Source of the DNA: Actinomycetes bacterium
Lineage (GTDB): Bacteria > Actinomycetota > Actinomycetes > Actinomycetales > Demequinaceae
Direction of reading: 5' to 3'
Length of the DNA stretch: 48,643 bases
Assembly (NCBI GenBank): GCA_030428165.1
Contig: JAUIBG010000001.1
Coordinates: 1 to 48,643, forward strand
A program made the position numbers and the translations under genes. Shown here one piece after another: positions 57 through 1,681 of this stretch (within the stretch, counting starts at the first letter, position 1; every line of letters starts with the position of its first letter). A model generated the notes under the pieces. The model made no database searches. It was given only the letters and a program-made list of their open reading frames with translations, and was not told the DNA's origin.

Positions 57-926
57 TCAGAAGAGCGTCTCCCCCGCTCCCACCAGCGCCGATGCCGATG
101 CAGGCTTGGCCCGCATCTCACCGTCGACGTCGCGTGCGGTGACGCGGTTGACCGAGCGGTCGCTCCTGCCGTAATCGTCGTTGTCACGGGGCGTCAGGCC
201 CCGCTCGGCGATGAGGGGGCGCACCCGCGCCGCGAGCGACTGGCGGTACGACTTCGGTGCGTTCGACGAGTCGCCGTACAGCGCCCTGTACTTGGGTGTG
301 AGGTCCGGCCGGTAGGTGTTGAGCCAGCGGGCGTACCACTCCTTGATGCCGGGCCGCAGGTGCAGGGCGCCGTAGGTGACCGACGCAGCTCCGGCGTCCT
401 TGATGAGGTCGAGCGAGTGGGCGAGCTGCTCCCGCGAGTCGGTGAGGAACGGCAGCACCGGCATGAGGAAGACGCTGACCCGCAGGCCAGCCTCGCTCGC
501 GGCACGGACCGTGGCAAGCCTCGCGGCACCCGACGGCGTCCCCGGCTCAAGCGTGCGCTGCAGTTCGTCGTCCATGACCGCGATCGACATCGACAGGTGC
601 ACGGGCACATCCTCGGCGGCGCGGCTCAGCAGCTGCAGGTCTCGGCGCAGCATCGTCCCCTTGGTGAGGATCGAGAACGGGGTGCCGGAGTCCGCGAGCG
701 CTTCGATGATCCCCGGCATGAGCGCGTAGCGGCCCTCGGCCCGCTGGTACGGGTCCGTGTTGGTGCCCATCGCGACCGGCTCACGCTTCCAGGATCTCTT
801 GGCCAGCTCCCCGCGCAGCACCTCAGCGATGTTGACCTTGACGACCACCTGGCTGTCGAAGTCGGCTCCCCCGTCGAGACCCAGGTACTCGTGCGAGCTG
901 CGTGCGAAACAGTAGACGCAAGCGTG
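57..926 (-). pseudogene. Rv2578c-family (SplB-like) radical SAM protein, 3' part (interrupted gene)
   Basis: Reads HACVYCFARSSHEYL...GTNTDPYQRAEGRY...ILTK...LEPGTP...VFLMPVLP; carries only the last two Cys of CxxxCxxC; open to stop at 57. Confidence 0.9.
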
Positions 927-1453
927 ATGACCTTTGTCATCCAACGATTCAGCCACGAAGTCTCAAGACGTTGCTTGACCCGCACTGTTGCGTGAAACAC
1001 TTTCGAGCATGGCCAGAGCGAGTGCCCGCGGAATCGACACACGCGCGCTAGGTGCACTCTGTCTGGCGTCGCTCGTGGCGCTCGTCGGTTGCGAAGCCTT
1101 GTCGCCTGGTCCAATGGTGCGCAATGACTGTGAGACGCCGATTTGGGCAGTGAACGCGGGTGGGCCCGCCGAGGAGCGAGCAGACCCCTCTGGGCAGGGC
1201 CGGTCGGCGGTCACCATCAACGTCGGCGAGACCGTCCAGGTGAGCGGTGAAGCGACGGCAACTACTGACTTGTACTTGTGGGTCAAGTCAGAAGGCAGCG
1301 AGTGGAAGACTGCGACGACTGTACTCAGGTCTCAGTCCGACAACGCCGAACTCGTCACCGTATCTGGCGATATGTGCCCAGTTCAGGGCGACGCGGAATC
1401 CGCGACCCCTGCGCCCTAACGAGCGTTTACACATAGTGGCACGCGCACGCGTG
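927..1453. mobile_element. 527-bp insertion splitting the radical SAM gene
   Basis: Bounded by CGCAAGCGTG (917-926) and CGCACGCGTG (1444-1453); removal gives in-frame YRGCSHACVYCFAR; no recombinase inside. Confidence 0.8.
1009..1419 (+). CDS. Putative lipoprotein (136 aa), cargo of the insertion
   Basis: Basic N-terminus, hydrophobic stretch, lipobox-like LVGC; two further Cys; TTGACC at 975-980 upstream; alternative start 988. Confidence 0.65.
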   Translation: MARASARGIDTRALGALCLASLVALVGCEALSPGPMVRNDCETPIWAVNAGGPAEERADPSGQGRSAVTINVGETVQVSGEATATTDLYLWVKSEGSEWKTATTVLRSQSDNAELVTVSGDMCPVQGDAESATPAP

Positions 1454-1657
1454 CGAGCAGCCCCGGTACGGGTTCACCGTCCACGAGAACGGCATCGACG
1501 ACGCCTGCGGCACGCGGTTGAGCGCGCTCTTGGCGTGCACCTCGTGGAAGGTGAGCCCTGCGAACTCGGGCGTCGTGACCGAGCGGACCACGTTGCTCAG
1601 CGCGAGCAGGCCCGGCTGGGCGTCGATCGCCTCCGTGGTCTGACCCTCCCAGCGCAT
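1454..1657 (-). pseudogene. Rv2578c-family radical SAM protein, 5' part
   Basis: MRWEGQ...VRSVTTPEFAGLTFHEVHAKSALNRVP...WTVNPYRGCS; reads into the insert and stops at 1427. Confidence 0.9.
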
Positions 1658-1665
1658 GCGCTTAT

Positions 1666-1681
1666 TCGAACACGTGTTCGA
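1666..1681. promoter_or_regulatory. LexA (SOS) box overlapping the promoter of the radical SAM gene
   Basis: Perfect TCGAAC-ACGT-GTTCGA; on minus strand TTGACC(1692-1687)-N17-TCGAAT-N6-ATG suggests a leaderless transcript. Confidence 0.9.

Follow-up and report, generated by a model that had tools for sequence, protein, structure and literature searches.

A recombinase-less 527-bp cassette inside a radical SAM gene at a putative target site of satellite-borne serine recombinases

How a gene lying behind an SOS box comes to be divided inside its active-site cysteine motif, and by what kind of DNA, is the question raised near one end of the window, the whole 48,643-nucleotide stretch analysed here. 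A first-pass annotation had proposed that a radical SAM gene is split within CxxxCxxC by a 527-bp insert, and that this insert is either the remnant of a site-specific integrative element or a non-autonomous switch excised in trans. The split itself is borne out. Both halves, which lie on the minus strand, match NF038135 (Rv2578c radical SAM) in a profile search: window positions 1445–1657 align to profile positions 1–74 (E 3e-29, 102 bits) and positions 60–926 to profile positions 72–316 (E 4e-117, 391 bits), scores to be read beside a 430-bit cut-off that applies to the whole protein. Neither half contains a stop codon, and in-register removal of the 527 bp yields an open frame of 357 aa in which the cysteine motif is restored as YRGCSHACVYCFAR. 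The SOS box upstream is perfect (Table 1), and 28 of 30 intact orthologue loci have one, with no more than a single mismatch, at the equivalent position; in M. tuberculosis, a LexA binding peak is located at Rv2578c in the study that also gives the SOS box consensus (PMC3381160).

Table 1. Features of the split radical SAM locus, in window coordinates
Feature	Position	Strand	Basis
3' half, radical SAM gene, third Cys and TIM barrel	57..918	-	ORF list, profile match
Right junction, attR-like: attP-type arm 921–942, TG core 919–920, gene-derived B' arm 897–918	897..942	-	satellite-arm match
Recombinase-less cassette, 527 bp	919..1445		in-register join, empty joints in runs
Possible weak cargo promoter TTGACC-17-CACTTT, 5 nt before ATG	975..1003	+	by eye
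Cargo, orphan 136-aa ORF, predicted lipoprotein	1009..1419	+	ORF list; signal-peptide-like N-terminus and lipobox-like LVGC (Cys28) by eye
Left junction: gene-derived B arm 1448–1469, TG core 1446–1447, cassette left arm 1424–1445	1424..1469	-	arm profiles
5' half, Rv2578c-family radical SAM, first two Cys of CxxxCxxC	1446..1657	-	ORF list, profile match, in-register join
Perfect actinobacterial SOS (LexA) box TCGAAC-N4-GTTCGA	1666..1681		consensus match upstream of radical SAM gene

When the 5' half is read through, a stop is met five codons into the insert, giving 76 aa (1427–1657), while the 3' half stays open in frame across the right arm as far as a GTG at position 956, within the cassette (921–956), for a possible 299-aa product without the first Cys. 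In-frame starts just upstream of the 3' half are seen in two relatives, G026 and G032, as well. The host is predicted to be without a working radical SAM enzyme while the cassette is present, and to have no recombinase of its own with which to repair the split. The insert (61% GC, against 70% for the genome) carries, as had been stated, no recombinase, intein or transposase: it holds one ORF only and gives no such match. A reading as an intein-containing Rv2578c (NF038136) was rejected, the insert being out of frame and containing a stop. The cargo ORF has no Pfam or PHROG match and no homologue at E ≤ 0.001, it is unique to the window genome among 64 genomes of the genus, and its single-sequence structure model is uninformative (pLDDT 37). 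A consensus promoter scan of the insert called no promoter.

The source genome (G000) is an assembly of 229 contigs, 94% complete and 3.8% contaminated. Another of its contigs (C227:1–595) carries the 3' part of the gene a second time, 93% identical, and the window differs from this copy at 33 synonymous and 5 non-synonymous codons. This partial copy probably stems from a co-assembled strain. The fragmentation, the contamination and the second copy are the points in favour of an assembly artefact or chance insertion, the outcome that had been named in advance as refuting the annotation, and one to which we attach next to no credence: the insert is contained in one 583-nt unitig that overlaps both flanks in three sequencing runs (X1, X2 and X3), and inserts lie at the same base in four other genomes.

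These runs belong to a set of eight public sequencing runs compared as assembled contigs, two of which (X1 and X2) look like one data set and one of which may be the source sample. Pieces of the insert are present in seven of the eight. In X1, X2 and X3 a common left unitig, with 0 differences, branches to the insert unitig (depths 6.6, 6.5 and 6.0) and to an empty joint (4.2, 4.1 and 9.3), the empty joints having 26 letters on the short side, below the threshold for bridging. In run X9, which represents another strain (14 differences), 91 letters span the empty joint, and in X10 a loose end of 19 letters fits the empty form. The search for junctions proposed in the annotation was thus answered in one half: the empty-site junction exists in public contigs, and a 527-bp circle junction was not seen in the contigs of the eight runs, an absence that is weakly informative, since rare forms are lost from assembled contigs. 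In the 3' end of the gene two haplotypes differ by about 7%, with a mosaic between them in the runs, so the filled and empty alleles, which are not phased, may belong to different strains. The run data show a variable site, not excision.

The empty joint also fixes where the insert ends. Five registers, from 917–1443 to 921–1447, are equally possible for the 527 bp, and the direct repeats CGCAAGCGTG (917–926) and CGCACGCGTG (1444–1453) are 9/10 identical, from which a deletion of 927–1453 had been deduced. The joint in public contigs reads 916|1444 and fits either side at four letters only (TGCG); the 1444–1453 copy is therefore the one kept, and the crossover lies within 917–920/1444–1447. 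The 9/10 repeat and the 527-bp length hold, but the repeat is not the recombination core, and the insert is better given as 919–1445; close to the core the attP arm imitates the gene, and the repeat is the result. Likewise, the boundary is site-specific, as the annotation held, with the correction that it is a serine-recombinase site of short core and 22-bp arms and not a 10-bp direct repeat.

Comparison with relatives shows what else occupies this base. The gene is carried by 70 of 78 genomes of the family and is split at this codon in four of them (G000, G026, G032 and G377), each with different content; with G440, described below, this makes the four other genomes with an insert at the identical base. 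Among 401 genomes drawn from the order, 167 carry the gene, and among the matches listed it is split here only in G000 and G377; in the same list, four genomes gave several gene matches. In G032 and G377 the site holds satellite-like elements of 9,414 bp (L034:2574–11960) and 8,730 bp (L040:1735–10470), which encode a large serine recombinase (LSR; Resolvase, Recombinase and Zn ribbon) adjoining the left junction, together with a major head protein, a scaffold, a head–tail adaptor and a small terminase. No relaxase was found among the 9 and 10 ORFs scanned in the two elements, and the nearest named relatives of the recombinase are actinobacterial LSRs. A TIR-domain gene is present within the G032 element. 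The inner arms of both elements form a dyad around TG and are attP-like. With these dyad arms, the adjoining LSR and the 4-bp core shared in the empty joint, the site is, as judged from sequence, an LSR target. The expectation that alignment of orthologous loci might reveal larger integrase-bearing elements or different cargo was confirmed on both counts.

Two further relatives extend the range of contents. In G026, two recombinase-less cassettes of 277 and 344 bp lie in tandem in the radical SAM gene. In G440 (L041:1676–2700), a 772-bp insert with a 139-aa ORF sits at the same site with its attP-type arm on the left, and its right side supplies a new promoter/SOS box and a 5' half that diverges from the resident copy (177/220 identical) and keeps the gene whole; it is the sole case among the 78 family genomes of an extra 5' half ahead of a whole gene. 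True inteins are found in G304, G112 and G354 (L172, L173 and L174), between the Tyr and the third Cys, 7 nt past the TG core, a position at which they would disrupt the integrase target's B' arm; a fourth candidate locus that was fetched had no motif match.

The two ends of the window insert are unlike each other. Its right arm (921–942) is identical to a satellite arm at 20 of 22 positions (p ≤ 1e-5), in a test whose profile was built from four satellite arms alone and in which 0 of about 100,000 random genomic 22-mers scored as high. The palindrome (hairpin) in this arm is broken in several variants. The left arm (1424–1445) shows no comparable likeness to attP (p=0.30) and is weakly attB-like, in that it resembles the B' arm of the gene (p=0.064). 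In attB-type arms, an outer motif stands about 5 bp nearer the core. No other copy of either window arm was found in G000, where 18-nt matches on C174 and C181 are chance hits within another gene. The class of the window's left arm was not found in the 77 other family genomes and differs from the arm class of G026, G377 and G006. A motif, GTTTACAC, recurs in cassette left arms, its window copy (1425–1432) being oriented oppositely to those of the other cassettes, and also occurs inside the satellites (L034:2611, 6394 and 10249; L040:6539 and 10418).

An enzyme that could act on the insert was sought in the host and its relatives. Queries with the satellite LSR matched in four of 78 family genomes, G032 and G377 and two distant cases, with no match in G000, G026, G440, G006 or G029. 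In G000 no match to the satellite LSR at E ≤ 1e-20 was obtained by tblastn or protein search, and none to its alignment or to PF07508; PF07508 likewise found nothing in G026 (99% complete) or G006. The sole recombinase matches in G000 are two small resolvases on C102, which were rejected as the cognate LSR. The LSRs of G029 and G440 are distant (27–30% identical over the N-terminal part), and related LSRs in other genera, in 5 of 401 class genomes and two viral contigs, do not lie beside this radical SAM gene within the flanks examined. A viral contig with a related LSR (L105:9900–11140) has two near-identical repeats of about 80 bp, 1,095 bp apart, with the same ORF start after each.

These searches bear on the proposal that the insert is a programmed switch, whereby DNA damage leads to excision or RNA-level removal and so makes the SOS gene whole again, by analogy with skin in sigK. 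A perfect SOS box, two intact halves, the 33 synonymous against 5 non-synonymous differences between the 3' halves of the co-assembled haplotypes, and empty joints that coexist with the insert in X1–X3 would all suit it. We nevertheless consider it very improbable. No LSR of the satellite clade was found in either G000 or G026, at their completeness of 94% and 99%; only 4 of 70 family genomes with the gene are split, their contents all differ, and the same cassettes lie between genes elsewhere; the G440 insert restores the gene permanently instead of gating it; and empty and filled alleles occur at like abundance, as is expected of a mixture of strains. With a left end that is not attP-type and no circle in eight runs, the switch put forward in the annotation is not upheld.

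Its other alternative, a remnant, leads to a wider family of small cassettes. The attP-type right arm also bounds cassettes at a second locus of G377 (385+568 bp), in G006 (385+436 bp), in G029 (484 bp) and in L045 (276 bp); the cassettes span 276–568 bp and occur alone or paired, at the radical SAM gene and at unrelated loci. Each small cassette, at 59–66% GC, holds a single short ORF whose product in most cases looks hydrophobic or lipoprotein-like by eye. The 385-bp cassette is present in 5 of 64 genus genomes, 90–95% identical and in several different surroundings, and in G006 and G377 it measures exactly 385 bp from arm to arm between different flanks. The 277-bp and 276-bp cassettes, 71% identical, lie in the radical SAM gene of G026 and at the unrelated locus L045, respectively. 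Both satellite-bearing genomes hold stranded cassettes at other loci too. Arms have decayed on older cassettes (G426, G025 and the second G032 locus), and the last arm of the G006 array has decayed as well. The copies of the 385-bp cassette in G426, G032 and G377 have about 50 bp in common outside the left arm, a stretch whose sequence hints at what may be a second, outer mobile unit.

The left arms of these other cassettes share a consensus. None of eight left arms is attP-like (p 0.06 to 0.54), and their likeness to B', taken one by one, is modest (p 0.016 to 0.19), the latter values not being independent since the arms are related to each other. Around the cassettes, both G377 array flanks fit the B' profile (p=4e-5 and 1e-5), as does the left flank in G006 (p=9e-4), and those of the G029 and L045 cassettes give no significant match. 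Dyad symmetry of the target sites reaches 10/13 in G377 and G029 (background 0.1%) and 6/13 in L045 and G006 (15%). Exact empty sites for the secondary cassette loci were not found. A pattern of the arms, built from the known cassettes, gave 29 two-mismatch hits in 78 family genomes, of which 18 without cassette context were dropped; because it was built from the cassette cases, its nine exact hits are not independent. The pattern marks six loci in genome contigs, three of them relevant and three within unrelated genes, and three in metagenome contigs, none a cassette. Two arm patterns had 0 matches in viral contigs, and of seven one-mismatch hits outside the family among the 401 order genomes, the two inspected were not cassettes.

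Several observations were made beside these loci. To the right of the G006 array, a sequence of about 100 bp (L070:9420–9520) is multi-copy in G003, G006 and G440. Upstream of the L045 cassette, beside a tyrosine-integrase-like gene, further short low-GC ORFs are found (L045:10300–11763), which are possibly older cassettes with decayed arms. The G029 cassette (L064:13640–13800) lies inside a frameshifted 5' gene fragment whose counterpart in relatives is intact.

An immobile remnant would have arisen by a one-off deletion of the satellite body and integrase that left attR and one gene, followed by spread through descent or homologous recombination in the flanks. A left arm that is not recognisable as an attP arm, cargo unique among the 64 genus genomes, the older cassettes with decayed arms and the mosaic 3' end in the runs are in keeping with such a history. 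Random deletions, however, would not give unrelated cargoes the same conserved left arm, set the arm-to-arm length exactly at different loci or build tandem arrays. In run X5, another strain has the same right arm with different cargo in the radical SAM gene, and the window right arm is joined there to a different left arm, one that belongs to another cassette and to the same class as the window's; across G000, X5 and X6 the window cassette has at least three different right neighbours. We therefore regard the immobile remnant as improbable, if less so than the switch. The annotation's description as a remnant of a site-specific element stands in so far as the site is targeted by LSR-bearing elements (G032 and G377) and the insert is recombinase-less, but the insert is not a one-off, being one of a cassette family found also at unrelated loci.

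With a defined site, an attP-type arm shared with satellites, a family of cassettes that end alike and lie at several loci, and metagenomes in which both the filled and the empty allele occur, we lean towards the reading that the 527-bp insert is a recombinase-less single-gene cassette left behind by a serine-recombinase satellite and removable only by one. In the mechanism we infer, each cassette would have an attP-type right arm and a left arm that is not attP-type and resembles attB, such that the junction of gene and cassette would be an attB-like site and that between two cassettes an attR-like site. A satellite would integrate at the attB-like left junction of a cassette. It could then excise through the near attR-like site, in which case the cassette would stay (drop-off), or through the far attR together with the cassette, in which case the intact gene would be restored (pick-up). 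Tandem arrays would result from repeated rounds, and cassettes at other loci from the use of secondary sites resembling attB. Serine integrases normally recombine attP with attB, and attL with attR only in the presence of a directionality factor (PMC4111918); having an attB-like left and an attP-type right arm, a cassette cannot leave by these standard rules alone. Accretion and cis-mobilisation of recombinase-less elements are established in the systems described in PMC5704250 and PMC7563491. The dissimilar arms, the tandem arrays, the cassettes at secondary sites and the G440 insert, with its attP-type arm on the left and a new 5' half on the right as in the mirror case predicted by drop-off and pick-up, would all be covered by ordinary serine-integrase reactions. 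A composite of satellite and cassette was not encountered: no internal cassette junction is present in the G032 or G377 element, and the two arm patterns found none in viral contigs.

The same tandem arrays with repeated junctions (G026, G377 and G006), the identical cassettes at different loci and the varied neighbours in X5 and X6 could also be produced by an integron-like system in which the cassettes are free units, moved directly in trans by an LSR of relaxed directionality through a circle that joins right and left arms. A precedent is offered by recombinase-less SCC-like cassettes circularised by CcrAB (PMC11470126). No circle joint was seen in the eight runs, which is weak evidence in assembled contigs; the clean dyad attP of the satellites is typical of directional integrases, by which the hybrid site on a cassette circle would normally be ignored; and no cognate LSR was found in G000, G026, G440, G006 or G029. 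Direct movement in trans thus appears rather unlikely to us, though of the rival readings it is the strongest. A broader proposal, which we offer tentatively and hold to be possible but doubtful, builds on drop-off and pick-up: satellites may run an integron-like pool, in which their serine integrase shuttles cassettes of 0.3–0.6 kb, mostly encoding orphan membrane proteins or lipoproteins, among strains, species and loci, builds arrays, and leaves the LexA-controlled gene off at drop-off and on at pick-up, its state following satellite traffic.

The cassettes suggest a way in which orphan genes of very small size move in actinobacteria, and the locus provides a concrete LSR together with its attP, its attB and secondary sites used in nature. 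For Rv2578c, a LexA-bound gene of unsettled function, naturally occurring alleles become available in the split, the restored and the intact state. With inteins 7 nt away in the same active-site motif, a single spot is contested by two kinds of parasite. If drop-off and pick-up take place as proposed, a directional integrase could build cassette arrays without non-standard reactions.

Among known systems, skin in sigK and SPbeta in spsM carry their own recombinase under host control. The insert is like them in that a regulated gene contains the serine-recombinase site and would be made whole by excision, and unlike them in that no such recombinase was found in it or in G000. Integron cassettes are small single-gene units in arrays, with one recombination junction each and many orphan membrane proteins among their products; the junctions here differ in being LSR half-sites, no resident platform is apparent, and the hairpin of the right arm, in contrast to an attC hairpin, is not maintained from variant to variant. 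A literature search, mostly outside subscription journals, found no description of such cassettes. The serine integrase of Streptomyces phage Samy likewise targets an Rv2578c-family radical SAM gene, a likeness at the level of the gene family; Samy is a full phiC31-like phage, and its published repeat, TCGGGTGTGTCG, differs from the core here (PMC12924846). In gene content, the G032 and G377 elements resemble actinobacterial satellites such as the EPIPs described in PMC12822802, which have a small terminase, head–tail adaptor, scaffold, major capsid protein and serine integrase, and differ from them in that no tape-measure protein is present among the ORFs scanned.

SCC-like cassettes (CcrAB/CcrC) resemble the present system in the involvement of an LSR, in recombinase-less tandem cassettes at a conserved gene and in variable cargo (PMC11470126). 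The example described in that source is about 17–26 kb, lies at rlmH and has its excision in trans demonstrated experimentally; the cassettes here are 30–50 times smaller, sit within the active-site motif of an Rv2578c-family gene, and would be excised by an enzyme whose nearest named kin are actinobacterial LSRs and not Ccr. The closest resemblance is to the CIMEs and microCIMEs of streptococci, which are recombinase-less, bounded by att sites, alone or in tandem, and moved by a related autonomous element that integrates at att (PMC5704250, PMC7563491). Like these, the insert has no integration or transfer genes, and the cassettes stand alone or in tandem. Of the two att ends of a CIME, it has an attR-type end at 20/22 and a left end at p=0.30 for an attP arm, weakly attB-like; tandems of cassette with cassette are present, and composites of satellite with cassette number 0 in two satellites. 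The CIMEs described in the two sources measure 1.2–13 kb with cargo or 130–220 bp without genes and lie beside conjugative elements and in the 3' ends of genes, unlike the present units of 276–568 bp with one gene, unlike arms, a disrupted target gene and use of secondary sites. The parent differs as well, being not an ICE or IME, since the elements at the site carry capsid and packaging genes. The insert appears, then, to work like a CIME yet departs from it in a satellite-like parent, unlike arms and one-gene units of 0.3–0.6 kb.
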